Shown here: piece by piece, positions 8,774-40,311 of the stretch
Layout: each line of letters opens with the position of its first letter
Numbering within the stretch: the stretch's first letter is position 1
Source: Bacteroidota bacterium
GTDB lineage: Bacteria; Bacteroidota; Ignavibacteria; Ignavibacteriales; SURF-24
Assembly (NCBI GenBank): GCA_030706145.1
Contig: JAUZPB010000006.1
Span: forward strand, 5,135-69,134
Length of the DNA stretch: 64,000 nt
Direction of reading: 5' to 3'
Notes under the pieces: generated by a model
Told to the model about the DNA's origin: nothing
The model's database searches: none
What the model saw: only the letters and a program-made list of their open reading frames with translations
Position numbers and translations under genes: made by a program

Positions 8774-8976
8774 GTCTGTTCTCCAGTATTTGTTTTCTTT
8801 GGAATCATAATAATATACATAATAGCTTTCGTAAGCTCTAGTCAAGAGTTAATTTATGGCATTATACCGGATAGGGTAGTAGAGCATTTACCAGTAAAAA
8901 CCTTCACTTTTGTCCGCTAGCAGGAATACAGAAACTGTAAATGTGAGTTCTGTATTCCCCTATTGTGCTGCGCATT

Positions 8977-26582: not shown

Positions 26583-26708
26583 TTTGTCTTTAGCCCTTTA
26601 TGCTAATTTGAACTAATTAGAAAAAAGCGTATTTTTCACCTTCGCTTCGTAAACTATTTGTTTTTAAGAAGATACCTACTAAAAGTTCGGGAAAAAATAA
26701 GGAAACCA

Positions 26709-27599
26709 ATGGCCTATTCAGGTGAATTAAGTGCTTTAGTGACTGCTATATTATGGTCTTTTACTTCATTGTGTTTTTCAGAAGCTTCTGTAAGGGTGGG
26801 GTCCCTTCAGGTAAATGTAACACGACTCTTGATAGCTGCCTTATTTTTAATCTTAACTATCCTTTTAATGGGATTTCCTGTTAACCTTTCTTCTTCACAG
26901 CTTATTAATCTGTCGCTTTCAGGACTTATTGGACTTATCTTCGGAGATACATTTTTATTCCGCGCTTATCAGAATATTGGTGCAAGGCTGAGCCAGCTTT
27001 TAATGGCCGCTGCTCCTGCTATGACTGCCATTTTGGCTTTCTTCTGGCTAGGCGAGGTCTTCTCCATCTGGGGAATTATTGGTATGATTGTAACTCTTGT
27101 TGGCATTGCAATGGTTGTTATGGAGAAAAACGAAGTCCCTTCTTCAAAATACAAGATAAGTAAAAGCGGAATCTTTTATGGATTCCTTGGCGCTTTAGGA
27201 CAAGCTGCAGGTCTTATTTTTGCAAAAAAGGCATTTGCAGAAGGTGATATAAACGGGTTTGTCGCTACATTTATTAGAATATTTGCTTCTATTATTGTAA
27301 TACTTCCTGCTGGAATTATTATTAAACGCTACAAAAATCCTTTCCGCATTTTTTCGAAAGATAAAAAGGCTCTGGGCTTTACTACCGCTGGATCAATACT
27401 CGGCCCTTACCTTGGAATTACTTTCAGCCTTATTGCTGTTGCAAATACAAAGGTTGGAATAGCAGCTACTATTATGGCTACTTCTCCTATTATTATGCTT
27501 CCTATGATAAAGTATTTCTATAAGGAAAAACTTTCCTGGAGATCTATTACAGGGGCATTTGTTGCAGTTGCGGGCGTTGCAATTCTTTTCTTGCGCTAG
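26709..27599 (+). CDS. EamA/DMT family transporter
   Basis: Two EamA repeats, about 10 TMs, ending ...KEKLSWRSITGA. Confidence 0.92.
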   Translation: MAYSGELSALVTAILWSFTSLCFSEASVRVGSLQVNVTRLLIAALFLILTILLMGFPVNLSSSQLINLSLSGLIGLIFGDTFLFRAYQNIGARLSQLLMAAAPAMTAILAFFWLGEVFSIWGIIGMIVTLVGIAMVVMEKNEVPSSKYKISKSGIFYGFLGALGQAAGLIFAKKAFAEGDINGFVATFIRIFASIIVILPAGIIIKRYKNPFRIFSKDKKALGFTTAGSILGPYLGITFSLIAVANTKVGIAATIMATSPIIMLPMIKYFYKEKLSWRSITGAFVAVAGVAILFLR

Positions 27600-27658
27600 T
27601 TAATCACGTTAGTTAATCAAATGCCTCTGTAAAATTTGTCACCTGAATATTCTTATTT

Positions 27659-28954
27659 TTATTGGACTAATGCAGCATCGCTGTAATTAATCCTGAACTT
27701 CTTTAGGTCAGCTAAGTGCTTTCTTGGCCTGCTTAGTTCGTAGTTATAAATAACTTTCCCCAGGTTTGCAAGGAAAGGATAACCTATCTTATCATATTCA
27801 TACTTGTCATCATTAAATATCTGATCTTCATTTACGTAAATTACGGCAGTTAGCATAAACTCTATGTTTTTGTCCAGATCTACTACATAAGCATTATCTA
27901 TCATAAAACCGTAGGCAAGACCTATCTTGTTGAATATTCTGATGTTTCTTGGAATTGTGTCTTTGCTGTCTCCAAACATTAAGAACTTGCAGTAACTATC
28001 ATATTCTTCCTTTGGATCATAATGCGGATACTGGCTTTCTCTTGGGAGCATCGACATATAGCGATATAGAAATTCGTAATCATCTTTTCTAAGATTGAAT
28101 CTTTGCGCCTTTGGAACATATTCCGGAAAGATAATAGATTTTAATATACCCTGAAGTGACTCAACTGAAATATAGTTGCTCTTGTTGAAATTCTTGGGCT
28201 CTTTTATAAGGCTGTCACCTGAATAGTAGCCAATCCCTTTTATAGCAGATGGAAGATCGTTTTTATATTCCTCAGTGTTGACCTGTTCAGGCTGAGAATA
28301 AATTGTCTTTCCATCTTTATTATAAAATGTAATTGGGTTAGTGTGACGGTTCTCTTCCTGGCTTAATGCAATGGAAACTCTATGAAACAGTCTTAAATCC
28401 TTAAAACCTCTTCTCCATAACTGCTCGTTTAAGTATTTCTGTCCAAGAAACTCATATGTCCTGTTAAAAGCGTCGTTATCGCTTACAAGAAATATCTTCC
28501 TTATATACTGAGCTATCGAGGGAAGGCCATTCTGAGATGACTTGTCACTGTCGACTTTTGTCTGTCCTGAAAATGAACTGTCAATTCGTAAAGAAGTGTA
28601 TTTGTTGAGTCCTTTAATGTGCAGCTCGTTTAATTTCTGGAGTGAAAGCACAGCTCCTGCAATTTTTACAGAGCTTGCCGGATAAAAGTATTTCTTAGGG
28701 TCAACATGGTACTTATATGAAGTAAATGATGGCCTGTTGTGCTTATCCCTGTTTATCTGAGTATATAATATCTGAATTTCATATTTGTCCGGATTTGCTG
28801 CTACTTCAGGAAACTTATCTTTGTTATTCCTTATTAAATTGTCCAGAAAGTTATCACTTCCTGAAGCATTTCTACCGTCCTGTGCAGCTATACTTATTGT
28901 TAGCAATAATAAAAATAAAAAAGCTAAAGCTAAATGATGTGTCCGCTTTTCCAT
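27659..28954 (-). CDS. Secreted serine hydrolase, class A beta-lactamase-related fold
   Basis: PASSVK (SxxK), SDN and NKIG motifs plus a signal peptide. Confidence 0.85.
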   Translation of the reverse strand: MEKRTHHLALAFLFLLLLTISIAAQDGRNASGSDNFLDNLIRNNKDKFPEVAANPDKYEIQILYTQINRDKHNRPSFTSYKYHVDPKKYFYPASSVKIAGAVLSLQKLNELHIKGLNKYTSLRIDSSFSGQTKVDSDKSSQNGLPSIAQYIRKIFLVSDNDAFNRTYEFLGQKYLNEQLWRRGFKDLRLFHRVSIALSQEENRHTNPITFYNKDGKTIYSQPEQVNTEEYKNDLPSAIKGIGYYSGDSLIKEPKNFNKSNYISVESLQGILKSIIFPEYVPKAQRFNLRKDDYEFLYRYMSMLPRESQYPHYDPKEEYDSYCKFLMFGDSKDTIPRNIRIFNKIGLAYGFMIDNAYVVDLDKNIEFMLTAVIYVNEDQIFNDDKYEYDKIGYPFLANLGKVIYNYELSRPRKHLADLKKFRINYSDAALVQ

Positions 28955-29055
28955 AAATAGTTTGATAATTTATTGAGTAAAATATTTGGCGGTAAAATAA
29001 TACCAGCCCAAATACAATCCAAGTAAATACTCAAAATATGGATGACATTTAAATT

Positions 29056-29571
29056 CTACTCTAGCTCCTTTGCTATCTTATTATAGGTCTGAAGATCACT
29101 TGAACTAAAACAAACAAAAATTACCTTCTCTATTGTTGTATTAAGCCTTAAGAACTCCTTTACCTCTGAAATTGCAATTCTTGTGGCCCTGTCAATTGGG
29201 AAACCATAAATGCCTGTACTGATGGCAGGGAAGGCAATGGTCTTTAAGTTATTTGCTATTGCAAGCTTTAAAGAGTTTCTGTAACAGCTTCTAAGAAGTT
29301 CGTCTTCCTCGTAATTTCCTCCTCGCCAGACCGGTCCAACCGTATGTATAACATGCCTGGCAGGTAATCTATATCCACCGGTGATTTTTGCCTCTCCGGT
29401 CTCACACCCTCCTAATGTCCTGCACTCATCTACTAACCCTTTCCCAGCAGCTCTGTGTATCGCTCCATCTACTCCCCCTCCACCTAATAGACTTGGATTA
29501 GCAGCATTTACAATGGCATCTGCTTCAAGTTTTGTTATATCTCCCTGTAAGATCTGTATCTTTTCTGTCAT
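29056..29571 (-). CDS. ymdB: Macrodomain O-acetyl-ADP-ribose deacetylase (YmdB-like)
   Basis: [26 protein letters not shown] and [11 protein letters not shown]. Confidence 0.92.
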
Positions 29572-29860
29572 TATTACTTCCTCTTTTGTCAGTTTGCTAT
29601 TCTCAATCATCAAATTAAATTACCTAAAAATTTTATATGTGCAAAATATGTTAAAATATTCACCAGTTAGGCGTTGAAAAAATACACACAAAAAAGAGCG
29701 ATTATGTAAGGAAAATCAAGTGTTGAAGTTTCTATCATTTAATACTGATGAATATATTTACAAGGCGGATTTTTGCCCTTAATTAATACAATAAGCTTTT
29801 GTGAGCGTAAGTCCCTTATAAATAACAACTTAGGAAAAGAGTAGGAGCTATGTCATGCTC

Positions 29861-29876
29861 TGGTATGCAATTTGCA
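29861..29876 (+). promoter_or_regulatory. Sigma54 -24/-12 promoter of the redox operon
   Basis: TGGTAT-GCAAT-TTGCA, 42 nt upstream of the ATG at 29919. Confidence 0.8.
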
Positions 29877-29918
29877 TCATATGTTACAAACAAAAACAAC
29901 AACAAAAGGATTAATATC

Positions 29919-30575
29919 ATGGTCGCATTATTTGTTGTCTTCACATTTATAATTTTAATTGTGATTGACATTGTTGTACTAAAAGCACAAAAAAGGAAAC
30001 ATCCGGCATTTGCCGATGCTGCCAAAGCAGTTTTTAACAAGAATAGTCTTTCACTGCCCGAAAGGATATTTGTCTCCAAGGGGCATACCTGGGCAGAACT
30101 GGTCCCCGGAGGCTTTGCTAGAGTCGGTGTCGATGAGTTCGTTCTTAAATCTCTTGGGAAAATATCTGTTAATTACATTGCAAAAGAACAGACTTTAGTT
30201 AAACAGGGAGAGGTTATATTCCAGGGTACTTCCGGTAAGGGGTCCTTTAGCTTCAGATCCCCTATCGATGGTGTTATTCAGGATGTAAATAGGAACCTTA
30301 CAAATATTCAGGACCCATATAGAAACGACTGGGGAGTTATTATTTCTCCATCTAACTGGGCAGACAATACAAAGTCACTAAAGAACGGTCAAGCTTTAGT
30401 CTCCTGGCTCAAAGATGAGTTCTCAAGGTTAAAGGACTTTCTTGCAGTTAATTCGATGAATACTGAGCTGGCTGGCGTAACGATGCACGATGGTGGTAAT
30501 ATTATGGAAGGTGCTGTCACTTATATGAAGGCTGAAGGCCTTAAGAATTTTGAAAATGAATTTCTAACCTTTTAA
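29919..30575 (+). CDS. Membrane-anchored GcvH-like (lipoyl-domain) protein
   Basis: N-terminal TM, GHTWA...ARVGVDEF, SPIDG, DPYRNDW and C-terminal GVTMHDGG. Confidence 0.85.
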   Translation: MVALFVVFTFIILIVIDIVVLKAQKRKHPAFADAAKAVFNKNSLSLPERIFVSKGHTWAELVPGGFARVGVDEFVLKSLGKISVNYIAKEQTLVKQGEVIFQGTSGKGSFSFRSPIDGVIQDVNRNLTNIQDPYRNDWGVIISPSNWADNTKSLKNGQALVSWLKDEFSRLKDFLAVNSMNTELAGVTMHDGGNIMEGAVTYMKAEGLKNFENEFLTF

Positions 30576-30586
30576 CTGAGGAATCA

Positions 30587-31360
30587 ATGGTCAAACAAAA
30601 GGGTATTTTGTACGATTCAACTATGTGCGTTGGATGTGGAGAATGTTATTCGGCTTGTAAAAAACAGAACAAGCTTCCTGAGACTAATTCGGATTTCTTA
30701 AAAGACCACCTTTCTGCTAATACTTATACTGTCGTTGAACAGCATGGCGATCTCTATGCAAGAAAAATGTGTATGCACTGCGCTGAGCCAACTTGCGCTT
30801 CGGTTTGCCCGGTAAAAGCTTTTGAAAAAACAAAAGAAGGCGCCGTTATTTATGACGCCGAAAAATGTATTGGCTGTAGATATTGTATGCAGGCCTGCCC
30901 TCATCAGATACCTAGATACGAATGGAGCCAGGTTAGCCCACGGGTTCGCAAATGCGTCCTTTGCCAAAATAGAATTTCTAAAGGTTTGCCTACGGCTTGC
31001 TCTGAAGCTTGTCCTACGGGGGCTACTATTTGCGGCGATTTAGATGACCTTAAAATTGAAGCAAAGAAAAGGCTATCTGAAGGCTCTGATAAATATTACC
31101 AGCATATCTATGGACTCGATGAAGCCGGTGGAGGAAGTGTTTTAATATTAGCTTCTGTTCCTTTTGAAAAATTAGGCTACACTCCTAACCTGCCTAAACA
31201 ACCTATGCCGCAGCTTACTAACCGTGTAATGGAAAAAATCCCTACGGTTGCTACTGTTGGCGGACTGTTCTTAGGCTCAATGTACTGGCTTACTAAAAGA
31301 AAAAATGAAATAGCCAGAGAAGAAAAAGAAGCAAAATTCAAGAGGAATGAAGTAAAATGA
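30587..31360 (+). CDS. 4x[4Fe-4S] electron-transfer subunit (HybA/FdnH/NrfC-like) with C-terminal TM
   Basis: CVGCGECYSAC, CMHCAEPTCASVC, CIGCRYCMQAC and CVLC...ACSEAC. Confidence 0.92.
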   Translation: MVKQKGILYDSTMCVGCGECYSACKKQNKLPETNSDFLKDHLSANTYTVVEQHGDLYARKMCMHCAEPTCASVCPVKAFEKTKEGAVIYDAEKCIGCRYCMQACPHQIPRYEWSQVSPRVRKCVLCQNRISKGLPTACSEACPTGATICGDLDDLKIEAKKRLSEGSDKYYQHIYGLDEAGGGSVLILASVPFEKLGYTPNLPKQPMPQLTNRVMEKIPTVATVGGLFLGSMYWLTKRKNEIAREEKEAKFKRNEVK

Positions 31361-32526
31361 AAAATTCGAATGCATCTAAATTGTCGTTCTGGAAGATTGT
31401 TGCTGCTGTTATTATGATCTGTGGACTGTATTCCAGCTATATAAGGTTTACTAAGGGACTTGGCGCCTCAACTCATCTAAGTGATTCTATACCATGGGGA
31501 CTATGGATCGGCTTCGACTTTCTTGGAGTCGGACTTGCCGCTGCTGGCTTTACAATTGCTGTTATGGTACACGTTTTTAACATTCATAAGTTTGAACCCA
31601 TTGTTAGACCTGCTATTCTTACAGCTTATATAGGCTACACACTCGTGGTTCTGCTTCTTATTATTGACCTTGGAAGACCTCAGAACTTCTGGCACCCTCT
31701 CGTCATGTGGAACCTTCATTCGGTCATGTTTGAGATAACATGGTGCGTTATTTGTTACAGCGCTATACTTACTCTGGAGTTTGCTCCTGTTGTTCTTGAA
31801 AAATATAATCTGACAGCTCCTATTAAAATTCTTAGGAAAATTTCCATTCCTGTAGTAATTTTGGGAGTAATTTTTTCAACATTGCATCAGTCATCTTTTG
31901 GTTCTCTTTATTTGATTGTGCCAGGCAGATTATATCCTCTATGGTATTCCACACTTTTACCGGTGAACTTTTATATATCATGTATAGCTGCCGGTCTTTC
32001 GATGATTATTTTTGAATCCTATTTAAACGCAAGAGCTTTTAATCTTGGCCTGAGACTGGACATACTTTCCGGCCTGGCAAAGATCGTTCTTTATGTCCTT
32101 ATAATAGGTTTTCTGGTAAGAATAACCGACATGATTATTACAGGAAAAACCCCTTTCCTTTTCTTGCCTCGTACTGAAACCTATATGTTCTATGCCGAGG
32201 TTATTGTCGGGACTTTTATTCCTGTCTACCTGCTTAGTCAGGCAAAGTATAGAAAAAGCAGAATGTGGCTCTATGTGATTTCGATATTTACTTTATCGGG
32301 ATTCGTTCTTAACAGGATCAATGTCGCAGTTACAGGACTCGTTGCATCTAGCAAAACTAGCTATTTCCCCTCGTTTGATGAAATAAGTATTACAATGATG
32401 CTCGTTGTTCTTGGCATGTGGGCTTTCAAATTGGTCTCAACAAAGTTCCCTGTCTTTGTTGAACTTGAAAATCTAAAGGAAGAAAAACTTCCCGAAGATA
32501 GCAGGGAAATGATCTTAAGTGAGTAA
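31357..32526 (+). CDS. NrfD/HybB/HmcC-family integral membrane subunit
   Basis: PWGLWIG.D, DLGRP..FWH, SVMFEI and LHQSS.GSL. Confidence 0.92.
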   Translation: MKNSNASKLSFWKIVAAVIMICGLYSSYIRFTKGLGASTHLSDSIPWGLWIGFDFLGVGLAAAGFTIAVMVHVFNIHKFEPIVRPAILTAYIGYTLVVLLLIIDLGRPQNFWHPLVMWNLHSVMFEITWCVICYSAILTLEFAPVVLEKYNLTAPIKILRKISIPVVILGVIFSTLHQSSFGSLYLIVPGRLYPLWYSTLLPVNFYISCIAAGLSMIIFESYLNARAFNLGLRLDILSGLAKIVLYVLIIGFLVRITDMIITGKTPFLFLPRTETYMFYAEVIVGTFIPVYLLSQAKYRKSRMWLYVISIFTLSGFVLNRINVAVTGLVASSKTSYFPSFDEISITMMLVVLGMWAFKLVSTKFPVFVELENLKEEKLPEDSREMILSE

Positions 32527-32558
32527 TCTTTTATTTCCTAAAAAAACATGTGATTACT

Positions 32559-33278
32559 ATGAAATATAAAAACAACTATTTCCGCGATCTTCAATGTATA
32601 TGGATGGCTTCCAATGTCGTTGATTATAAACTGTGCGATAGAGAGTTCGACTGCGATAATTGCTTCTTCGATAAGTCGATGCGCAATATTCAGCACCAGT
32701 TTAGCTCAATGGACATTGAAGATAAAAAAGATAAATTGAACAAGATCGTTCAAACCATAATCCATAATATTGAAAACGCCGAGTTTAATAGTCAATATTC
32801 GTATTTCCGTAACCATTTAGTTGCAAAAAATCTTTTTGCTAATACCTATTATCTTGGCTTTAGCCCTGTTGCTATAGATATTCTTGATAGCAGTACTTCT
32901 GTAGAGCAGAATGCCAGGGTAGAAAAAATCAAAAAAGGAGAACAACTTCTTAAGATTACAGGACCATGGGGAAAAGTTGATCTTTGTGCTCCAATTGATT
33001 TCTCTTACCTCGGACATATCAATGAAGCCCATAACTCACACGAAAGATGGTTTGGCCTAATTGAAACTTCAAAAGAAGAAATGAATTCAAACTGTATTTC
33101 AGTCTCTGATTATCATAGGGACATTATAGATATATCCAAAGAGTTGACTAAATTCCAAAATGATTATCCGGAAATCGGTGCCTCTATGCTCGATGGCGGC
33201 GTGGAGACTAGATTCCTCTACCAGGTAATTGGCAATACAAAATACAATAAAATACTCGAGACGTTATTCAATAAATAA
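32559..33278 (+). CDS. Degenerate GcvH-like protein with N-terminal Cys cluster
   Basis: CIWM...YKLCDREFDCDNCFFD (C-X12-C-X5-C-X2-C), H...YLG, KKGE.L...AP and GASMLDGG. Confidence 0.75.
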   Translation: MKYKNNYFRDLQCIWMASNVVDYKLCDREFDCDNCFFDKSMRNIQHQFSSMDIEDKKDKLNKIVQTIIHNIENAEFNSQYSYFRNHLVAKNLFANTYYLGFSPVAIDILDSSTSVEQNARVEKIKKGEQLLKITGPWGKVDLCAPIDFSYLGHINEAHNSHERWFGLIETSKEEMNSNCISVSDYHRDIIDISKELTKFQNDYPEIGASMLDGGVETRFLYQVIGNTKYNKILETLFNK

Positions 33279-33323
33279 TCTTTTTTCACAATACTTTAAT
33301 TAATTTATTATTCAGGGGTCGAT

Positions 33324-33833
33324 ATGAAAAAGTCTAGCTTAATGTTGTGTGTTTTTGTTCTCTCAGCTTTTGTGTTTTCGCAGAGTCTTTATTCTCAGGC
33401 TAAGTATACTGGAGTTAAAACTTGTTCAGCTTGCCATAGAGGTGAAAAGGGTAAAAATGTTTTCGAAAAATGGCAGTCCTCTGCTCACTCCAAGGCTTTT
33501 GAAACCTTAAAGAGTGATAAGTCTAAGGAAATTGCAAAAAAAATGGGTATCTCTGATCCTGCTTCTTCTGATAAATGTCTTACTTGCCATGTTACTAACG
33601 GCGGAAACGGCGCTGGTATTAAGAAAGAAGAAGGCGTTACTTGCGAAAGCTGCCATGGCGCTGGCTCAGAATATAAGGCAATGAACGTTATGAAAGATCA
33701 TGACCTTGCTGTTAAAAAAGGACTTATCCTAGGTAAAAATAATCCTGACCTTTGTAAAAAATGCCATAACCCCAAAAGCCCAACTTATAAACCCTTTGAC
33801 TTTGCAAAGAAAATGGCTATGATAAAACATTAA
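33324..33833 (+). CDS. Periplasmic tetraheme cytochrome c (c554-like)
   Basis: Signal peptide plus CSACH, CLTCH, CESCH and CKKCH. Confidence 0.92.
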   Translation: MKKSSLMLCVFVLSAFVFSQSLYSQAKYTGVKTCSACHRGEKGKNVFEKWQSSAHSKAFETLKSDKSKEIAKKMGISDPASSDKCLTCHVTNGGNGAGIKKEEGVTCESCHGAGSEYKAMNVMKDHDLAVKKGLILGKNNPDLCKKCHNPKSPTYKPFDFAKKMAMIKH

Positions 33834-33869
33834 TAAAATTCGATAGAATGTCTTATAATTATCAAAAAT

Positions 33870-33902
33870 AAGAAAAGGCGGACCATCCCGCCTTTTCTTT
33901 TT
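33870..33902 (+). terminator. Intrinsic terminator ending the redox operon
   Basis: AAGAAAAGGCGG-ACCATC-CCGCCTTTTCTTTTT. Confidence 0.85.
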
Positions 33903-34064
33903 CTGCGGCCCTGCAAATCTCTCAACTCCCTGTTATTACTTAATATTATGAGAATTTCCCCCAAGGTTATTATTGCCTCTTATTCTCTCTCTTTTTTATT
34001 TTATGTGCTTGCTATTCTAAGCTTTGTTGAATAATTTTACATCAGATTTTACAATTGATGTTCC

Positions 34065-35657
34065 ATGAGAATCAAATTTTATAATAAGTTAAGTTTTAAT
34101 TTAATTATTGTTGTTTCATCGATATTATTAATTAATTTAGCTTTTCATACATTCTTTACTCTCAATAAGCTTGAAAAAGACCTTACAAGCTCCTATTCTC
34201 AGAATGCTTATAATATCAGTGATATTATAAAGAAGTCTACTCGCTATAGTATGCTTCTTAACAGAAGCTACGATGTACACCAAATTATTAAAACTATCGG
34301 GACAGAAAAAGGCGTTGAAAAGATAAGGATCTACAACAAGTTAGGTAAAATTATTTTTTCTACTGATAGTACTGAGATCTTTTCAACTGTTGATAAGAAT
34401 GCCGAGGCCTGCGTTGTCTGTCATAGCAATGGTAAAACTGTTAAAACTCTTACAGTTAAAGACAAGATAAGAATCTTCAAAAAGAAGGGCTCAGGTGAGC
34501 GCGTCATGGGCCTTATCAATCCTATCTATAATGAAAAGGATTGCTATAGCTCTGATTGCCATGCACACGAATCTAATGTTGAACTCCTGGGCGTCCTGGA
34601 TGTCGTTATATCGATGAAAATGGTTGACCAAATTATTGCTTCTAATATAAAAGGAGTAATTACAACATATATAGTCGTGACTTTTATTATCTCACTTTTT
34701 AGCTGGCTTTTCATTTCTCTTCTGGTAAATAGGCCAATTAGAAAAATTACTAGGGGAATTGAAGAAATTGGAAAGGGGAATCTCGATTATAAAATAAAGG
34801 TAAGTTCAAAAAATGAATTGGGTAAAATGGCTACACAGTTTAATGATATGTCAGGTAAATTAGATCTGGCTTATAAAGAAATTAAACAATGGTCTGAAAC
34901 ATTAAATGAAAAGGTAAAGGAAAAGACTGAAGAACTAAAAAAAATATATGATCAGATAATCCAGATCGAAAAACTTGCCTCCCTGGGCAAGCTTTCTGCA
35001 ACTGTTGCCCACGAGCTCAATAATCCGCTTGAGGGAATTCTGACTTACAGTAAACTAATAGCCAGAAAACTCCAAAAGGTTCAGAAAGATAATGAATTTG
35101 AAAAGGTGCTTGAATACTTGTGCCTTATTTCTGAAGAATCAAGCCGCTGCGGAAGAATAGTAAAGGATCTGCTCTTGTTCTCTCACAGAGGCGATGAGGA
35201 ATTTACAGAGGAAAACCTTGAAGCAATTGTTGATAAAAGCATTTTGCTTATTAGCCACCATCTGGAAATACATAAGATAAAACTTGATAAAGAATATGAG
35301 GACTGCACACTTAATATTGTGGGTGATTCACAAAAAATTCAGCAGGCTTTGATCACTATTCTTATCAATGCCATTGAGGCCATGCCAAATGGTGGAACCC
35401 TAAAGGTTAAGACTCGAAAAGAAAACGATGCAACTGCAGTTATTCGTATAATTGATGAGGGTTATGGTATCTCCGAAAAGGACCTTCCTCACATATTTGA
35501 ACCATTTTATTCTACTAAACAGAAATCCAAAGGTACAGGACTCGGACTTGCTGTTGCCTATGGTATTATAGATCATCATAAAGGTAAGATTGAGGTGGAG
35601 AATACCTCTCAAAAAGGAACTACATTTAAGATTACATTACCAATAAAGAAAAAATAA
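34065..35657 (+). CDS. Sensor histidine kinase with periplasmic c-heme motifs and HAMP domain
   Basis: CVVCH and CYSSDCH between two TMs. AHELNNPL, N box, DEGYG, F and G2 boxes. Confidence 0.93.
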   Translation: MRIKFYNKLSFNLIIVVSSILLINLAFHTFFTLNKLEKDLTSSYSQNAYNISDIIKKSTRYSMLLNRSYDVHQIIKTIGTEKGVEKIRIYNKLGKIIFSTDSTEIFSTVDKNAEACVVCHSNGKTVKTLTVKDKIRIFKKKGSGERVMGLINPIYNEKDCYSSDCHAHESNVELLGVLDVVISMKMVDQIIASNIKGVITTYIVVTFIISLFSWLFISLLVNRPIRKITRGIEEIGKGNLDYKIKVSSKNELGKMATQFNDMSGKLDLAYKEIKQWSETLNEKVKEKTEELKKIYDQIIQIEKLASLGKLSATVAHELNNPLEGILTYSKLIARKLQKVQKDNEFEKVLEYLCLISEESSRCGRIVKDLLLFSHRGDEEFTEENLEAIVDKSILLISHHLEIHKIKLDKEYEDCTLNIVGDSQKIQQALITILINAIEAMPNGGTLKVKTRKENDATAVIRIIDEGYGISEKDLPHIFEPFYSTKQKSKGTGLGLAVAYGIIDHHKGKIEVENTSQKGTTFKITLPIKKK

Positions 35658-35671
35658 CGGTAGAGAAAAAG

Positions 35672-37018
35672 ATGAAAAGTAAATCAACTATTTTAATTGT
35701 AGATGACGAAAGAATTGTTCGGGAATCTTTGTTGCATTGGTTTGAGGAAGAAGGCTATCAGGTGGATATTGCTGAAAGCGGAGAAGATGCATTAAAAATT
35801 ATTGATAAAGACAAATATGATCTTATGCTTGTCGATATGAAAATGCCTGGTATTAGCGGGCTTGAACTTCTTGACAGGGTTAAAGAGATCGATCCGGATT
35901 GCATCTTTATTCTTATAACTGCTTTTGCATCTGTTCCAACTGCCATTAAAGCTCTTAAGAACGGAGCTCATGATTATATTACTAAGCCTATCGACCCGGA
36001 TGAACTTGCCCATATAGTTGAAAAAGCTATTCATCAAAGACAGCTTCTGCAGGAAAATACTCAGCTTAAAGATAGCCTGGATGAGATCATTAAACCGGAT
36101 AACCTGATCGGTGAATGCAGGCAGATGAAAAAGATTTATGACCTTATTAATACTGTCTCCCTGACAGATACTACCGTTATGATTCGCGGTGAAAGCGGAA
36201 CAGGAAAAGAACTAGTTGCAAAAGCAATCCACATTAACAGCAAACGCCGATATTTTCCTATAATTACTGTTAACTGCGGCGCTTTAGCTGAATCTCTCCT
36301 TGAAAGTGAACTCTTTGGACATGAAAAAGGTGCTTTTACTGGAGCTCACTATAAAAGAAAGGGAAAATTTGAAATGGCCGATGGCGGTACAATCTTTTTG
36401 GACGAAATTGGTTCTATTTCATCAAAGATGCAGGTTGAACTGCTTCGCGTAATTGAAACTAAACAGTTTATGAGAGTTGGCGGTAATGAAAATATAAAAA
36501 GCGATTTCAGGATTATTGCTGCTACTAATGAGCCTTTGGAGGATCTGCTTAAAGAAGGTAAGTTCAGGGAAGACCTTTATTACAGGCTTAATGTTTTTAC
36601 CATCTTTATTCCGCCACTGCGCGAAAGAAGGGAAGATATACCCATTCTTTCCTATTATTTTATGAATAAGTTCAACGCGGCTATGAATAAAAGTTTTAAG
36701 AACATTTCTGACGAAGCTATGGACTTCTTGATGAACTATAATTGGCCTGGTAACGTAAGAGAACTTGAAAATGCTATCGAAAGGGCTCTTGTTGTTGGTA
36801 AGGCCGATACAATTGAGCTTGAGGATTTGCCATTCCACATAACTCCAAATAATAGAATTGATCTTAACGACCTCAGCCTGGCTTCAATTGAAAGGAAACA
36901 TATTCTTAATGTTCTTGAAGCAAATAACTGGAATATCTCAAGAAGTGCAGAAGCTCTTCAGATTGACCGTGTAACTCTTTATAATAAAATTAACAAATAT
37001 GGATTCCGGAAAACTTGA
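35672..37018 (+). CDS. Sigma54-dependent NtrC/AtoC-family response regulator
   Basis: REC domain, GESGTGKE, GAFTGA, WPGNVRELEN and a Fis-type HTH. Confidence 0.96.
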   Translation: MKSKSTILIVDDERIVRESLLHWFEEEGYQVDIAESGEDALKIIDKDKYDLMLVDMKMPGISGLELLDRVKEIDPDCIFILITAFASVPTAIKALKNGAHDYITKPIDPDELAHIVEKAIHQRQLLQENTQLKDSLDEIIKPDNLIGECRQMKKIYDLINTVSLTDTTVMIRGESGTGKELVAKAIHINSKRRYFPIITVNCGALAESLLESELFGHEKGAFTGAHYKRKGKFEMADGGTIFLDEIGSISSKMQVELLRVIETKQFMRVGGNENIKSDFRIIAATNEPLEDLLKEGKFREDLYYRLNVFTIFIPPLRERREDIPILSYYFMNKFNAAMNKSFKNISDEAMDFLMNYNWPGNVRELENAIERALVVGKADTIELEDLPFHITPNNRIDLNDLSLASIERKHILNVLEANNWNISRSAEALQIDRVTLYNKINKYGFRKT

Positions 37019-37578
37019 TGGACATTAATATTGCCCCTATTGAGTTTTCTAACACTTCACTTCTAAGCAGCATCTTTTCAGAAGTTCAAAAAGCCTTCAG
37101 CAGCGGGAGCCGGACTAATATTATTTCACTCCCGCTGGAAGTTAAATCTGCATATTATAGCGACCGGGGACAGTATTTTTCGACTCAGATCATTGCCGAT
37201 ACTATAAAGCTTACAGGCCAAATTAGTGGCAAAGTCCTCCTCCTTGTCGAATTTGACCTCTTCGTCCCTGTCTTTACTTATGTCTTCGGTGAGGCACAAC
37301 TAAATGGAAAACATTCTATTGTTTCTGTCAGCAGACTTCATGAAGAACTATATTCTGGAAAAACAAATGAAAATCTTCTGCGGGAAAGAACAAAAAAAGA
37401 AGTCCTGCACGAATTAGGACACAATTTCGGCCTTACTCATTGTAAAGATTGGGATTGCGTTATGCACCAGTCACAGGGTGTTGAAGAAATAGATATCAAA
37501 GGAAGCTATTACTGCAAGAACTGCTCGAAAATAATCGATATTCATAACCATATCGCTGCCTCTGAGACTCTCTTTTAG
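37015..37578 (+). CDS. Archaemetzincin-family Zn metalloprotease
   Basis: HELGHNFGLTHC, CVM, C..C and FVPVFTYVFGEAQL. Confidence 0.9.
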   Translation: MMDINIAPIEFSNTSLLSSIFSEVQKAFSSGSRTNIISLPLEVKSAYYSDRGQYFSTQIIADTIKLTGQISGKVLLLVEFDLFVPVFTYVFGEAQLNGKHSIVSVSRLHEELYSGKTNENLLRERTKKEVLHELGHNFGLTHCKDWDCVMHQSQGVEEIDIKGSYYCKNCSKIIDIHNHIAASETLF

Positions 37579-37722: not shown

Positions 37723-37738
37723 TGGCATAACCTTTGCA
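37723..37738 (+). promoter_or_regulatory. Sigma54 -24/-12 promoter
   Basis: TGGCAT-AACCT-TTGCA upstream of 37792. Confidence 0.8.
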
Positions 37739-37791: not shown

Positions 37792-38274
37792 ATGGAACTA
37801 ATACCAATTGTTGAAACGACTTTAAGTATCTTTACTGGACTGCTCATTTTAGGAGTGCTAATTTCATATATCGCTAGCAAAATTAGGAAGAATGAAAATA
37901 ATTCTTCTACAAAATCAGATAGATATAATCAGGAGAGTCGCGCAAGAAATATAATTCCAAATCAACATGACTTTTCTATGCAGTATCAGCATATGCAGTA
38001 TAAACCGGCAATCGCTTCAAGTTCACCTGCAGGGTATGTTCCTTCAGGCAATCAGTTTAAAGGTGATGAATTTCGCTCCAACTATTTTGCCCAAAGGCCT
38101 GTTGAGAATAATTTGGAAAGTAAACCAAGACATGCAAAGTCTGCCCCTTCTAAATTTACAGTCCTAAACAATTTACCTCTTCGGGGCACAACACAAATAA
38201 CTGAATCTATTGAAATGAATAATAATAGAGATGCTGCATTTAATACAAAAAACAATTCTATTATGTTCAAGTAA
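37792..38274 (+). CDS. Hypothetical protein with N-terminal TM and low-complexity polar tail
   Basis: TM at residues ~8-29, then an N/Q/S-rich tail. Has its own promoter and terminator. Confidence 0.7.
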   Translation: MELIPIVETTLSIFTGLLILGVLISYIASKIRKNENNSSTKSDRYNQESRARNIIPNQHDFSMQYQHMQYKPAIASSSPAGYVPSGNQFKGDEFRSNYFAQRPVENNLESKPRHAKSAPSKFTVLNNLPLRGTTQITESIEMNNNRDAAFNTKNNSIMFK

Positions 38275-38503: not shown

Positions 38504-38519
38504 TGGTATATTCTTTGCA
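38504..38519 (+). promoter_or_regulatory. Sigma54 -24/-12 promoter of the flagellar operon
   Basis: TGGTAT-ATTCT-TTGCA, 33 nt upstream of 38553. Confidence 0.78.
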
Positions 38520-38552: not shown

Positions 38553-38777
38553 ATGAATAAGATAATTCTGCATACTGGCTTACTGATATTCTTCATCTCA
38601 GTCATCTTTTTCAGCCAAAAAGGTATGGCTCTGCAGGATATTATTATTAGGTCGCTGGTAGTATTTGTTGTTTCTACAATAATGCTGAGTATTCTGGTCC
38701 TGGTTGTTGTAAGATCAATAAATAAAACCTCGCTTTCAAAGAGTAAAAGTATAACAGAAACCATCACCAGGGAATAG
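38553..38777 (+). CDS. Small 2-TM hypothetical protein
   Basis: Two hydrophobic helices. First gene of the operon, 5 nt before fliA. Confidence 0.7.
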   Translation: MNKIILHTGLLIFFISVIFFSQKGMALQDIIIRSLVVFVVSTIMLSILVLVVVRSINKTSLSKSKSITETITRE

Positions 38778-38782
38778 TAACC

Positions 38783-39406
38783 ATGAATACATCTTTACTG
38801 TGGTCAAAATTTAAGCAGTCTAATAGTCCCGACTTGAAACGTCAGATAATGATGAATTACACAAATCTGGTCCATTATGTAATACATAATTCAAAATTTG
38901 TAAGCATCAATATTGTAGACGATAGGGACTACTTCCAGTTCGGTATTGAGGGTCTTAGTGAAGCAATTGACAGGTTTGACCCTGAATATGGCACTAAATT
39001 CGAGACTTATGCTATTCAAAGGATCCGTGGTAAGATTATTGACGAGCTGCGAAAGATCCAAATTAAACCTCGCAGCGCTAATGGCGAAAGTGATGTAATG
39101 TATACTAATATATCACTAAATAATTCCTATGATGAAGAAGATGGTTATATGCTTTATGAGGTGATTCCTAACGAAGGTGAACTCCCTGATGAAGCAATCG
39201 ATAAAAGTGAAGCTAAAGAACTTTTAATTAATGCTATTAAAGAATTAAATGAAAGGGACAGGCTGGTTTTAACTTTATACTATTACGAAAACTTAAATTA
39301 CAAAGAAATTGCTCAGGTGCTTAACATTACTGTCTCTAGAGTTTCGCAGATCCATTCGAAAATCGTTCACGATCTAAAAATAAAATTAGTTAAGCAATAT
39401 GATTGA
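38783..39406 (+). CDS. fliA: FliA/WhiG-family sigma28 (short, region 3 reduced)
   Basis: GL.EAIDRFDP..GTKFETYA..RIRG.IIDELR and LYYYE.L..KEIA.VL..T.SRVSQIHS. Confidence 0.9.
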   Translation: MNTSLLWSKFKQSNSPDLKRQIMMNYTNLVHYVIHNSKFVSINIVDDRDYFQFGIEGLSEAIDRFDPEYGTKFETYAIQRIRGKIIDELRKIQIKPRSANGESDVMYTNISLNNSYDEEDGYMLYEVIPNEGELPDEAIDKSEAKELLINAIKELNERDRLVLTLYYYENLNYKEIAQVLNITVSRVSQIHSKIVHDLKIKLVKQYD

Positions 39407-40277
39407 AAACTCACCCGAGCTACAGAAAAAAAGGGATAGGGGTAAGTTGATCCTTTCTCAGGTCTATAATCTCCCCTCCATACCACTTGTTATGATGGAG
39501 GTTACGAGACTTTTGGGAAATCCTATGACTAGCGCCGCAGAACTTGGGCGCGTTATTAGCAAAGATCAGGCTCTTGTAACAAAAATCCTTACTGTTGCAA
39601 ACTCTCCTCTCTATGGACTCCCCAGGAGAGTCTCTACGATTGATTTCGCTATTATTATTCTAGGCTTTGAACATATAAAGAACATTGTTATTGCTCTTTC
39701 TATGATGGAAGCTTTTAAGAATAAAAGCGATAAAAACCTTGACCAGAAAAAATATTGGGTACATTCAATTCTTACAGCTGGAGCTGCTAAAAGACTTGCT
39801 GATGATCTTGGCTATCATTTTACTGGCGAAGCCTTTACAGCCGGACTGCTGCATGATTTGGGAATTCCAGTTATTCATAAATATTTTACAGCCGATTTTC
39901 TAAAAATATGCGAACTCGCTGAAGCTAAATCTCTTTCATATTCTGAAGCACAGGATGAAATTCTGGGTATTAGGCACGAGGAGATCGGTAATCAGCTTGC
40001 TCAGAGATGGAACCTTCCGTTGACTCTTAGCGATTCTATTTTAAATCATCATAAACCTTCCGGTTCAGAACAAAATAAAATTCTGGCCTCTATTGTTCAT
40101 CTGGCCGATTATATGACTACTAAGCTTGAGATTGGTAACTTCTCTTGGGATGACGACTATTCACTGGACCTGGGTATTCTTAACACTCTTAAGTTTAATG
40201 ATGAATCTCATCTTGAAAGGTTTATTAACGGCTATAAGGACCTTTTCTTAGAACAGGTCAATTCGATAAAAATTTAA
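39399..40277 (+). CDS. HDOD domain protein
   Basis: LPSIP, KDQAL..KIL.VANSP.YG and AGLLHDLG. Confidence 0.92.
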   Translation: MIENSPELQKKRDRGKLILSQVYNLPSIPLVMMEVTRLLGNPMTSAAELGRVISKDQALVTKILTVANSPLYGLPRRVSTIDFAIIILGFEHIKNIVIALSMMEAFKNKSDKNLDQKKYWVHSILTAGAAKRLADDLGYHFTGEAFTAGLLHDLGIPVIHKYFTADFLKICELAEAKSLSYSEAQDEILGIRHEEIGNQLAQRWNLPLTLSDSILNHHKPSGSEQNKILASIVHLADYMTTKLEIGNFSWDDDYSLDLGILNTLKFNDESHLERFINGYKDLFLEQVNSIKI

Positions 40278-40311
40278 TTAATAAAATTTCATAACTCACA
40301 AGTAATTAAGA

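Follow-up and report, generated by a model that had tools for sequence, protein, structure and literature searches.

A conserved gene cluster that combines an FeS/quinone membrane module with H-protein-like partners, a haem-c sensor kinase and a sigma-54 activator

Introduction

Why should proteins with the H-protein (GcvH) fold be encoded beside a membrane-bound FeS/quinone module, and do the genes around them form one system? The question is raised by a locus in the window, by which we mean the whole 64,000-nucleotide stretch of DNA analysed. The operon encodes a membrane-anchored H-fold protein (G1), an FeS protein (G2), an NrfD-family protein (G3), a second H-fold protein (G4) and a cytochrome c (G5); genes for a histidine kinase (G6), an NtrC-type activator (G7) and an archaemetzincin (G8) follow. 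An earlier note had proposed an uncharacterised respiratory or sulfur-redox complex, and the ten features that it listed were all found in the open reading frames and by Pfam and NCBIfam. Its conserved system, sigma-54 control and haem-c sensor stood; its analogy to LbpA-like carriers of sulfur or lipoate found no support, the lipoyl-lysine column not being conserved.

Many bacterial phyla share the gene cluster of which this locus is one copy. In it, a membrane FeS/quinone module is accompanied by two H-protein-like partners, together with a haem-sensing kinase, an activator of the sigma-54 type and a protease about which little is understood. In this lineage the operon adds a tetrahaem cytochrome c, and the di-haem-c kinase, NtrC-type activator and archaemetzincin come after it. 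Literature searches found no earlier description of this cluster. The explanation that we place first, and to which we give an even chance, is a cytochrome c/quinone module like HybAB or HmcBC, whose cytoplasmic H-fold subunits would be signalling parts tied to the two-component system.

Conservation of the gene cluster

All 80 genome loci retrieved with a G4 profile were surveyed, 52 of them having at least 5 kb on each side of the G4 gene. G1 was found in 65 of the 80 (45 of the 52), G2 in 66 (46), G3 in 64 (46), the kinase in 65 (46), the activator in 64 (48) and the archaemetzincin in 46 (36); G1, G2, G3, G4, kinase, activator and archaemetzincin, all seven together, occur in 37 of the 80. 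A second, metagenomic set comprised 48 G4-matching loci, of which 27, each at least 6 kb long, were examined: G1 and G4 are present in 26 each, G3 and the archaemetzincin in 21 each and the activator in 20. According to record titles, the cluster occurs in Ignavibacteria, Bacteroidota, Calditrichota, Gemmatimonadota, Acidobacteriota, Planctomycetota, Myxococcota, Eisenbacteria and KSB1. Co-occurrence in other genomes had been set beforehand as the test of whether the genes belong together; they were found together far outside the source genome, and the neighbourhoods of genome and metagenome loci alike bear out a single conserved system.

Transcriptional control

A sigma-54 (-24/-12) promoter of the G1-G5 operon was placed at 29861..29876 (TGGTATGCAATTTGCA, TGGTAT-N5-TTGCA), 43 nt before the ATG of G1 at 29919; the promoter and all eight genes are on the + strand. 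A start of G1 at 29850 was rejected in favour of this ATG because homologues begin at MVALF. Taken alone the site is weak, with 34 sites of at most two mismatches in the window against 25.7 expected. Among the 48 G1 homologues that have an MVALF-type start, however, a relaxed -24/-12 motif was found 15-110 nt upstream in 32 (the motifs themselves lie 30-71 nt upstream), as against 98 of 4800 control windows. This conserved upstream motif bears out the sigma-54 control that had been claimed for the operon, and rpoN was found in the source genome. The operon is closed by a hairpin terminator at 33870..33899 (no strand assigned), with a 13-pair stem, six G-C pairs and T runs on both sides.

The H-fold proteins

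G1 (29919..30575) opens directly with a TM helix and a K/R flank, continues with a non-canonical GcvH fold (Pfam GCV_H, 36.7 bits against a cut-off of 22.2) and ends in a helical extension with the motif G-x-TM-x-DGG. Its model (pLDDT 84) matches H protein 1dxm with Z 17.2 and rmsd 1.4 over 126 residues. G4 (32550..33278) has no Pfam match, but alignment, Foldseek and hhalign identify it as a paralogue of G1: its model matches GcvH 1onl (Foldseek E 1.6e-5, TM 0.70), and hhalign pairs it with G1 at 99.2% probability (E 1.8e-19). The two share a C-terminal helical extension of about 60 residues in which DGG is invariant, and G4 adds a four-Cys motif (C-x12-C-x5-C-x2-C) that is invariant in 80 of 80 loci.

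The fold is thus that of the H protein and LbpA, and the differences lie elsewhere. We take the lysine in the SVKA motif of E. coli GcvH to be the lipoylated one. Its column holds K in 3 of 21 G1 relatives (K there or in the next column in 11 of 21), and in G4 a nearly invariant Trp; the G1 of the window itself keeps Lys. As families, G1 and G4 accordingly lack a conserved lipoyl-lysine, and the likeness to lipoate-binding LbpA sulfur carriers that had been suggested for them is not supported by this column. Neither the membrane helix of G1, the four-Cys motif of G4 nor the DGG extension belongs to the H protein or LbpA. The NCBIfam gcvH score is also below its cut-off (32.5 bits against 115.85), and the source genome has its own canonical gcvH as a separate gene on contig C46.

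The quinone module

G2 (30587..31360) is a HybA/HmcB-like protein with 16 invariant Cys, corresponding to four [4Fe-4S] clusters; it has no signal peptide and ends in a TM helix and a K/R-rich tail. G3 (31357..32526) is a HybB/HmcC-like membrane protein of the NrfD family with 10 helices (Pfam NrfD, 79.7 bits). G2 shares 40% identity with E. coli HybA, the alignment starting at HybA residue 39, and G3 is 30% identical to HybB (E 5e-48). Of 25 HybB residues of the quinone site and proton path, as listed in the accessible part of PMC8076601, 16 are identical and 2 conservative in G3. Those retained include D58, R89, Y99, D109, S129, E133, E148, H184, E291 and R329, and the same part of that paper reports D58, R89, Y99, E148 and H184 to be mutationally important. 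Judged by sequence, G3 is a predicted quinone-site NrfD protein paired with the four-cluster FeS protein G2.

These likenesses, together with best NCBIfam matches to HmcB/HybA and HmcC/HybB, would also suit a known accessory of a hydrogenase (HybAB) or of an Hmc complex whose catalytic subunits are encoded elsewhere in the genome. All four scores nevertheless lie under the curated equivalog cut-offs (for G2, HmcB 249 bits against 420 and HybA 198 against 263; for G3, HmcC 282 against 550 and HybB 258 against 450), the source genome has just one NrfD gene besides G3, and the cluster forms a self-contained unit that is accompanied by its own regulators in phylum after phylum. A hydrogenase accessory, named beforehand as the finding that would count against a new system, is ruled out because the NiFe large subunit (PF00374) has no match in the whole source genome, which is 98.5% complete. 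We regard the accessory reading in general as highly improbable. The earlier note was also right that the window itself encodes neither a NiFe catalytic subunit nor a molybdopterin subunit; matches to the latter are confined to three other contigs (C7, C113 and C289), whereas the window lies on C302.

With HybA/HybB the module has in common a four-cluster FeS protein with a C-terminal anchor and a 10-helix NrfD protein; it differs in its sub-cut-off scores, the absence of a HybO/HybC hydrogenase from the source genome, the absence of a Tat signal from G2, the two extra H-fold subunits and the dedicated sigma-54 regulation. The cytochrome c:quinone complexes Hmc (HmcABCDEF, of Desulfovibrio) and nine-haem Nhc (NhcABCD) likewise combine a multihaem cytochrome c with an HmcB-like FeS protein and an HmcC-like NrfD protein, and HmcB and HmcC are the top NCBIfam matches here. 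NhcC is listed as NrfD-like in the accessible part of PMC8076601. In contrast to these complexes, G2 and G3 fall below the equivalog cut-offs, and neither a cytochrome b of the HmcE/F type nor an HdrD-like subunit turned up in the cluster; H-fold proteins are placed on the cytoplasmic side instead, and the cytochrome is a small one, missing from most loci. The latter, G5 (33324..33833), is a Sec-exported tetrahaem cytochrome of the c554 type (four CxxCH; PF13435, Cytochrome_C554, 59.6 bits) and is lineage-specific, occurring in 14 of the 80 G4-profile loci and 11 of the 52 with long flanks. In loci where the FeS protein bears a Tat signal, the genes after NrfD encode class III multihaem cytochromes.

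In the explanation that we place first, electrons would pass between a periplasmic cytochrome c, the FeS protein and menaquinone/menaquinol at NrfD, which would make the module a small cytochrome c:quinone oxidoreductase of the Nhc/Hmc kind; the direction of transfer, the partners and any enzymatic activity are what we infer. Its main conflict is that a folded FeS domain without a signal has no nameable route to the periplasm. No Tat or Sec signal was found on G2 here or on the partners of 42 of 66 classified G3 homologues, and no protein of the operon carries a twin-arginine signal. In all loci of the Tat-less class, about 10 residues precede the first cluster motif of G2.

An alternative is a complex facing the cytoplasm, where in the Tat-less lineages, that of the window among them, the FeS protein would stay and exchange electrons with G1 and G4, which would replace the catalytic subunit as redox, thiol or sulfur carriers. 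Such a complex, close to the idea of the earlier note, would connect the quinone pool with a substrate bound to a carrier in the cytoplasm, much as SoeABC connects it with sulfite; SoeAB face the cytoplasm. The short, signal-less start of G2 and its alignment from HybA residue 39 fit this arrangement, as do the cytoplasmic placement of G1 and G4 by sequence features, the Lys that the window's G1 retains and the invariant Cys of G4. SoeABC is moreover listed among complexes with an NrfD-like subunit in the accessible part of PMC8076601. However, K/R counts in the loops of G3 (N-terminal side against the other) average 10.6 against 4.1 with a Tat-less partner, in 42 of 42 homologues, and 10.6 against 5.0 with a Tat-bearing partner, in 17 of 19; G3 therefore has the same orientation in both classes. 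If G2 were cytoplasmic, it would thus have to dock by a new face and turn its anchor helix round, despite homology of the two G2 classes over their whole length; both classes, moreover, retain a K/R-rich tail after that helix. Taken with the periplasmic cytochrome c gene in the operon, the class III cytochromes of the Tat-bearing loci and the lipoyl column of G1 and G4, this makes a cytoplasm-facing complex quite unlikely.

A proposed signalling role for the H-fold proteins

A complex of three chains (G1, G3 and G2) was modelled from alignments made here; a job of three chains is unlike those of the tool's calibration set. G1 against G3 plus G2 scored 0.79, the best of three controls 0.00. In the calibration this mark was attained by 58 of the 80 complexes of solved structure and by 2 of the 110 mismatched pairs. 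The runs share at least 62% of contacts, and partner pLDDT is at least 73. Confident contacts of G1 involve only its residues 1-21 and 28-32, and are made with G3 (residues 11-12, 48-49, 222-232, 277-284, 302-326 and 336-338) and none with G2, residues not named by the tool being merely uncertain; this too speaks against carriers that serve a cytoplasmic G2. The model places the N-terminus of G1 at the side of G3 that is poor in K/R. It packs the conserved N-terminal helix of G1 on NrfD helices 8 and 9 and puts the H-fold domain on the cytoplasmic side. Such a position, at the NrfD face opposite to a periplasmic FeS domain, would point to signalling. Against this, NrfD proteins to our knowledge hold no cofactor, and nothing wires periplasmic clusters to cytoplasmic H-fold proteins.

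Longer homologues of G4 point the same way. In 13 of 14 (13 protein clusters), Pfam finds HisKA and HATPase_c domains on the same chain as the G4 module. Such fusions are a minority, found in 4 of the 48 G4-matching metagenome loci (L119-L122), but in L121 and L122 the fusion stands at the exact position of G4, in the order G2-G3-G1-[G4::kinase], after which come archaemetzincin, activator and haem kinase. G4 adjoins kinase/activator genes in nearly all arrangements. Fusion to histidine-kinase cores points to signalling instead of lipoate or sulfur carriage.

The same data bear on a plainer respiratory module, in which G2 and G3, with or without a cytochrome, would form an inducible quinol:cytochrome c (or cytochrome c:quinone) oxidoreductase. 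G1 and G4 would then be assembly or stabilising subunits, for instance for cluster insertion or export of the signal-less G2; kinase, activator and archaemetzincin would just regulate, and the H-fold proteins would not signal. Conserved quinone-site and proton-path residues, sigma-54 control, cytochromes c inside the clusters, the modelled binding of G1 through its membrane helix only and the fact that G4 is as a rule unfused are all consistent with this. Were G4 a mere assembly factor, it would be hard to see why its whole module is repeatedly found fused to a kinase core at one and the same cluster position, and G1 and G4 cannot be simply an export aid because they are kept in lineages where G2 has its own Tat signal. 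We find the plainer module rather unlikely.

In the signalling explanation that we prefer, G1 would be a fixed subunit, its helix lying on NrfD helices 8 and 9, which bear the conserved E281 and R320, and its H-fold domain in the cytoplasm; G4 would be its soluble paralogue with a four-Cys metal or cluster site. Both would be signalling or regulatory parts, not lipoate or sulfur carriers, and would inform the kinase/activator pair of the state of the module or of redox conditions in the cytoplasm, the sensed signal being conjecture.

Kinase, activator and archaemetzincin

G6 (34065..35657) is a histidine kinase by Pfam, with a periplasmic sensor followed by HAMP, HisKA and HATPase_c. The sensor carries CxxCH (CVVCH in the window) and Cx4CH, and both motifs, about 43 residues apart, are present in 66 of 67 homologues, which upholds the haem-c sensor kinase proposed earlier. 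G7 (35672..37018) is an NtrC-type sigma-54 activator with receiver, AAA+ and HTH_8 domains (Sigma54_activat, 232.9 bits) and the GAFTGA motif. The kinase would also sense periplasmic redox state via its haems, and the phosphorylated activator would turn on the operon; other genes may be further targets of the activator, or its targets in place of the operon.

The start of G8 (37015..37578) overlaps the stop of G7. G8 is an archaemetzincin with the motif HExxHxxGxxH-C-x4-C...CxxC: its 155.3 bits for the family-level NCBIfam model NF033823 exceed the cut-off of 145, and it matches PDB 2x7m at E 2.6e-22. In a reverse test on 301 genomes of the phylum, a sigma-54 activator adjoins 28 of the 30 best archaemetzincin loci. 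The extended motif given in the accessible part of PMC3427221 is HExxHxxGxxHCx4CxM...CxxC, and very little is said there to be known of the biological role of archaemetzincins. Compared with the described proteins (AmzA; PDB 2x7m, 3zvs), G8 shares the motif, with a spacer of 16 residues instead of 17, but is bacterial and is encoded in overlap with a sigma-54 activator. It would probably process some component of the circuit. In five related loci, nrfH/nrfA-like genes lie directly downstream of the archaemetzincin gene; in four of the five, no sigma-54 motif was found upstream of nrfH.

A known parallel is NrfS-NrfR of Desulfovibrio vulgaris, described in the accessible part of PMC5701242 as a sigma-54 two-component system for a respiratory operon. 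Here likewise a sensor kinase and an NtrC-type activator would drive a -24/-12 promoter of periplasmic electron-transfer genes, but the sensor has two c-haem motifs, and a putative H-fold co-sensor and a protease stand alongside.

Gene content and distribution of the cluster

Eight closely spaced genes lie on the forward (+) strand of the window at 29861-37578, as defined by open reading frames and by Pfam and NCBIfam searches. In order, they encode a GCV_H-domain protein (36.7 bits) with an N-terminal membrane helix (G1), an HmcB/HybA-like 4Fe-4S protein (G2), an HmcC/HybB-like NrfD protein (G3), a GcvH-like protein with four conserved cysteines and no Pfam or NCBIfam family match (G4), a c554-type cytochrome with four CxxCH motifs (G5), a HAMP/HisKA/HATPase_c kinase (G6), a receiver/Sigma54_activat/HTH_8 activator (G7), and an archaemetzincin that exceeds the NCBIfam cut-off (G8). 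A 13-pair hairpin with T runs is located 3' of G5. The features listed for this region in the earlier note were all present; the single correction concerns the start of G1, which is set at the ATG at 29919 rather than at 29850 because homologues start with MVALF, and the promoter therefore falls upstream of G1, not within it. Joining of G1 and G2 by read-through or frameshift was considered and rejected: the two genes are in different frames in the window, and a stop lies between them in the related locus L003.

A profile of G4 relatives was run against one genome per species and returned 80 loci, whose open reading frames were searched by phmmer with the eight window proteins, using fixed thresholds for the counts. 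According to their record titles, these loci belong to Ignavibacteria, Bacteroidota, Calditrichota, Gemmatimonadota, Acidobacteriota, Planctomycetota, Myxococcota, Eisenbacteria, and KSB1. Homologues of G1, G2, and G3 were found in 65, 66, and 64 of the 80 loci, respectively, homologues of the kinase and the activator in 65 and 64, and archaemetzincin in 46; among the 52 loci flanked by 5 kb or more on either side, the corresponding counts were 45, 46, 46, 46, 48, and 36. The cytochrome G5 was found in 14 of the 80 loci (11 of the 52). The complete set of seven core genes was present in 37/80. Gene order differs among loci: the window has G1-G2-G3-G4-(G5)-G6-G7-G8, and in Planctomycetota and some Acidobacteriota G6, G7, and G8 are encoded on the strand opposite G4-G1-G2-G3. 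The same cluster was observed in an independent set of metagenome contigs, of whose 48 loci the 27 of at least 6 kb were analysed. The co-occurrence that the earlier note had proposed to look for in gene neighbourhoods is found in both the genome loci and the independent metagenome loci.

At thresholds of E <=1e-3, 1e-10, and 1e-30, the G4 profile matched 1512, 695, and 139 representatives of 50%-identity clusters, the weakest of which probably include ordinary GcvH. The matching loci come from mostly uncultured soil and sediment phyla; relatives also occur in lineages with cultured members, including, by record title, Ignavibacterium album (L035), Melioribacter (L008), and Caldithrix (L054), and the questions raised here are therefore open to bench tests. 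Contigs from RNA libraries, 90-98% alike, cover parts of G1, G2, G3, G5, G6, G7, G8, and the ORF at 37792-38274; they derive from relatives in two runs of one study, possibly represent DNA, are uninformative on starts or levels, and weigh neither for nor against any reading. No contig from these two runs covers G4, a gap that proves nothing.

The redox module

G2 contains 16 cysteines (C14, 17, 20, 24, 62, 65, 70, 74, 94, 97, 100, 104, 123, 126, 138, and 142), invariant in 17 sequences and enough for four predicted [4Fe-4S] clusters. G3 falls within the NrfD family (PF03916; 79.7 bits against a cut-off of 25.8) and, as expected of a member, is a polytopic membrane protein, with about 10 hydrophobic segments and without cofactor motifs. 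Identity to the E. coli proteins is 40% for G2 with HybA and 30% for G3 with HybB. Among the 25 HybB residues assigned to the quinone site or proton path in the accessible text of PMC8076601, 16 are identical and 2 conservatively replaced in G3; those kept include D58, R89, Y99, D109, S129, E133, E148, and H184. All four equivalog scores were below cut-off, both for G3 (HybB, NF008133, 258.3 against 450; HmcC, NF045714, 282 against 550) and for G2 (HybA, NF008134, 198 against 263; HmcB, NF045715, 249.3 against 420), which places the pair in a sister group rather than in HybAB or HmcBC proper.

The earlier note had allowed that the module might prove to be the accessory part of a hydrogenase or Hmc complex encoded elsewhere. 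The 98.5%-complete genome has no NiFe large subunit and only one NrfD gene besides G3, and the hydrogenase case was rejected on that ground; accessory status of either kind now appears extremely improbable. Cytochromes c do accompany the module, as tetrahaem G5 in the window's lineage and as class III multihaem proteins encoded 3' of NrfD in clusters whose G2 relative bears a twin-arginine (Tat) signal. The closest functional analogues are therefore the small Nhc/Hmc-type cytochrome c:quinone oxidoreductases.

Several related loci carry additional redox genes. In L019, L020, L022-L024, and L059 (Ignavibacteria), a second, Tat-bearing HybA/HybB-like pair is found near the Tat-less cluster, with a class III multihaem cytochrome of 379 residues encoded after it. 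In L029 (Gemmatimonadaceae), a single 792-residue ORF (8968-11346) contains both FeS (Fer4_11) and NrfD domains next to a class III cytochrome; it may be a genuine fusion or an ORF-calling artefact of GC-rich DNA. Directly 3' of the archaemetzincin gene in L003, L005, L008, L009, and L060 (Ignavibacteria/Melioribacter-type) are nrfH-like (220 residues) and nrfA-like (489 residues) genes. No link to nitrite reduction is claimed, since a -24/-12 motif is absent upstream of nrfH in 4 of these 5 loci.

H-protein-fold proteins and the fusion of the G4 module to kinases

Both G1 (Z 17.2 to 1dxm, rmsd 1.4, 126 residues aligned) and G4 (Foldseek E 1.6e-5 to 1onl, TM 0.70 normalised by target) have the H-protein fold. 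The two are paralogues (hhalign probability 99.2%, E 1.8e-19, 156 columns), and each ends in a helical extension, absent from ordinary GcvH, that bears an invariant G-x-T-M-x-D-G-G motif. Neither is a GcvH equivalog by NCBIfam, G1 scoring 32.5 against a cut-off of 115.85 and G4 giving no match. The earlier note had drawn an analogy to LbpA, a lipoate-binding sulfur carrier. The lysine of the SVKA motif in E. coli GcvH, K65, is the lipoylated residue, and its column was read from an alignment of G1 and G4 with E. coli GcvH and the canonical GcvH of the host genome. The column holds K in the window's G1 and in 3 of 21 G1 relatives (11/21 if the next column is also counted); the aligned position in G4 is Trp in 18 of 20 relatives. 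With no conserved lipoyl-lysine, the analogy is not supported: to judge from these aligned residues, lipoate carriage cannot be the function of the two families, although the window's own K-bearing G1 may itself be lipoylated.

G4 carries a C-x12-C-x5-C-x2-C motif, found in 80/80 loci; since the search pattern contained only the YKLCD part, the other three cysteines are independent observations. Neither the four-Cys segment nor the C-terminal extensions had a sequence match in Pfam or the PDB, and a protein-cluster search (Atlas) with G4 gave nothing beyond clusters labelled GCV_H or 'hypothetical protein'. Two G4-related proteins, P0106 (450 residues, with four stretches matched in the profile search) and P0161 (381 residues), have apparent repeats of the Cys-motif segment ahead of one GCV_H domain, which suggests that the segment is a separable module. 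A third type of GcvH-like domain, which matches profile positions ~80-205 (E 1e-8 to 1e-11) and lies within ORFs of about 390 residues, is common in the order to which the window belongs (genomes G041, G057, G097, G101, G105, G185, G193, G225, and others).

Longer relatives of G4 number 14, of which 13 consist of a complete G4 module (four-Cys motif, H fold, and DGG extension) followed by HisKA and HATPase_c domains. In the metagenomic loci L121 and L122 the fused kinase occupies the exact position of G4, after G2-G3-G1, and is followed by convergent archaemetzincin, activator, and haem-kinase genes. Because these fusions stand in G4's place, the G4 module in them is a kinase input domain within the same system. 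By analogy with the fusions, a kinase is probably also the target of free G4, in keeping with the nearly constant location of its gene next to those for the kinase and the activator. That G1 and G4 are instead purely structural is the nearest alternative, and we consider it unlikely: neither the fusion to kinases nor the position of G4 fits a mere assembly factor. In L019, L024, and L025, G4 is found beside two kinase/activator pairs, without G1 or archaemetzincin.

Predicted sigma-54 control and the haem-motif kinase

A -24/-12 type site, TGGTATGCAATTTGCA, is located at 29861-29876. Taken alone it is unremarkable, as the window contains 34 sigma-54-type sites with two or fewer mismatches against 25.7 expected. 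The earlier prediction of a sigma-54 promoter is nonetheless supported by phylogenetic footprinting: in 32 of 48 homologous loci TGGYAY-N5-TTG[CTA] was found 30-71 nt 5' of the start of G1, compared with 98 of 4800 random control windows drawn from the same loci. Most of the 16 loci without the motif have a different first gene in the operon, and several of them have the motif upstream of that gene. The genome also encodes rpoN (contig C68). G7 has the expected parts of an NtrC-type activator, namely receiver (113.5 bits), Sigma54_activat (232.9 bits), and HTH_8 (47.4 bits) domains and a readable GAFTGA motif. No activator-binding site could be defined upstream of G1 in the window. An inverted repeat, CTYATAA-N17-19-TTATRAG, about 110-125 nt 5' of the G1 ATG in L003, L004, L007, L013, L022, L026, and L030, may be such a site; neither the window nor L001 has a clear copy.

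The sensor region of G6 is a periplasmic loop between two membrane helices with CxxCH and Cx4CH motifs about 43 residues apart, a pair found in 66 of 67 kinase homologues, the sole exception being a fragment. By these attachment motifs G6 is a predicted c-type haem sensor kinase. Searches of the PDB with the sensor domain gave only sub-threshold matches, among them the Geobacter haem-PAS sensor 3b42 (E 0.099).

Topology and a model of the membrane complex

G1 begins at once with a strongly conserved helix, in which M1, V2, A3, V6, and D17 vary little or not at all; a K/R flank comes next, and this suggests an N-out, C-in orientation. In a model of the complex, G1 scored 0.79 against G3 plus G2, with 0.00 for the best of three controls. 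When the scoring was calibrated, 58 of 80 solved complexes attained this level, as did 2 of 110 mismatched pairs, figures that hold only roughly for custom alignments and three chains. Contact agreement among runs was at least 62% and partner pLDDT at least 73. Confident contacts join G1 residues 1-21 and 28-32 to G3 residues 11-12, 48-49, 222-232, 277-284, 302-326, and 336-338. The contacted region consists of helices 8 and 9; E281 and R320 in these helices correspond to E291 and R329 of HybB. No experimental structure of NrfD bound to an H-fold protein is known to us, and it therefore seems unlikely that the score reflects a structure already familiar to the modelling tool. The first residues of modelled G1 lie at K/R-poor helix ends and residues 17-32 at K/R-rich loops, which puts the H-fold domain, as modelled, on the cytoplasmic side.

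G2 has no Tat or Sec signal, none of the operon proteins has an RR signal, and G2 thus has neither its own Tat signal nor a Tat-bearing catalytic partner, one or the other of which would mark an NrfC/HybA-type periplasmic subunit; TatC is present in the genome. Tat-less partners accompany 42 of 66 classified G3 homologues, and a clear RRxFLK, a signal borne by G2 relatives from other phyla, is found in the partners of 19 others; all 18 G2 proteins of the metagenome set (18/18) have an RRxFLK-type signal. No export route can be named for Tat-less G2, and the alternative is an FeS protein that faces the cytoplasm and works with the H-fold proteins as carriers. Against such an arrangement, the Tat-less and Tat-bearing classes do not differ in how G3 is oriented or in the anchor helix and K/R tail of their G2. 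K/R counts in G3 loops on the N-terminal versus the other side averaged 10.6 versus 4.1 with a Tat-less partner (42/42 homologues) and 10.6 versus 5.0 with a Tat-bearing partner (17/19). We consider a cytoplasm-facing FeS protein improbable. Given like topology in both classes, a periplasmic FeS domain in each is the simplest interpretation, despite the lack of a nameable export route for the Tat-less form.

The archaemetzincin

G8 scores 155.3 against the NF033823 cut-off of 145 and 87.1 bits against Peptidase_M54 (PF07998), carries the HExxHxxGxxH and four-Cys motifs, and aligns to 2x7m. Archaemetzincin above cut-off was found in 29 of 301 genomes of the host's phylum, and a sigma-54 activator adjoins the gene in 28 of the best 30 archaemetzincin loci in the same 301 genomes. 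A strong archaemetzincin match was present in 21 of 22 genomes with full-length G4 (E <1e-17), by a hand count at a threshold picked post hoc.

Proposed role of the system

Gene content, conservation of the cluster and of its promoter motif, the haem motifs, the kept quinone-site residues, the folds, the want of a conserved lipoyl-lysine, and the fused forms are observed; how the parts work together is inferred. The proposed arrangement is as follows: G2/G3 would link periplasmic cytochromes c to menaquinone by electron transfer; the helix of G1 would pack against helices 8 and 9 of NrfD and its domain would lie on the cytoplasmic side, as modelled; the haems of G6 would sense the redox state of the periplasm; G1 and G4 may add a signal that originates in the membrane module or in the cytoplasm; G7 would switch the operon on; and the archaemetzincin may trim some component of the circuit. 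We regard this whole package of redox module, haem kinase, G1/G4 input, activator, and archaemetzincin as about evenly poised between right and wrong. A more ambitious version, which we advance tentatively and with more doubt than belief, is that the H-protein fold was co-opted for signal input, with archaemetzincin as the circuit's protease and NrfCD as a sensor of respiratory state. Non-lipoylated, four-Cys G4, working either free or fused to a kinase, and membrane-anchored G1 would then couple the state of NrfCD, perhaps its proton path or quinone site, to the histidine kinase and the sigma-54 activator. If true, the NrfCD module would be, partly or wholly, a sensor of respiratory state in at least nine phyla, and bacterial archaemetzincins would have a first physiological context.

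Taken singly, G2/G3, the activator, the haem-motif kinase, and the protease are members of known families. NrfCD-type modules are a main link in anaerobes between the quinone pool and periplasmic redox chemistry. All of those described in the accessible text of PMC8076601 have catalytic or cytochrome partners, and none has H-protein-fold subunits. In the literature searched we found no description of the combination of H-fold subunits on an NrfCD module, an H-fold/four-Cys kinase input domain, and a constant archaemetzincin partner; as far as their accessible text extends, the Melioribacter genome paper does not describe the cluster and the Melioribacter multi-omics paper does not discuss it. 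The cluster offers a kind of subunit new to respiratory membrane complexes, what is probably a new family of histidine-kinase sensor domains, a genomic handle on the role of archaemetzincins, and a topological puzzle in the form of a HybA-like FeS protein without an export signal.

Flanking genes

Upstream of the cluster (26658-29613) are genes for an EamA-family transporter, a 431-residue secreted protein of beta-lactamase fold, and a Macro-domain protein; as the same three precede the cluster in the closest related loci, they represent local synteny outside the system. Immediately 3' of the archaemetzincin gene, the ORF at 37792-38274 encodes a membrane-anchored protein of 160 residues with no Pfam family, whose own family is found in six closely related loci. 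A stronger sigma-54-type site with one mismatch, TGGCATAACCTTTGCA (37723-37738), lies 54 nt 5' of this ORF, and a -24/-12-like motif also precedes its homologues in L001 and L002; the ORF may be an additional target of G7. Another -24/-12-like site, TGGTATATTCTTTGCA (38504-38519), lies 5' of a 74-residue ORF (38553-38777). The region beyond it, 38783-41190, encodes a sigma-70-family factor that has just regions 2 and 4 and, in tandem, two paralogous proteins with HDOD/HD domains, both 292 residues long.
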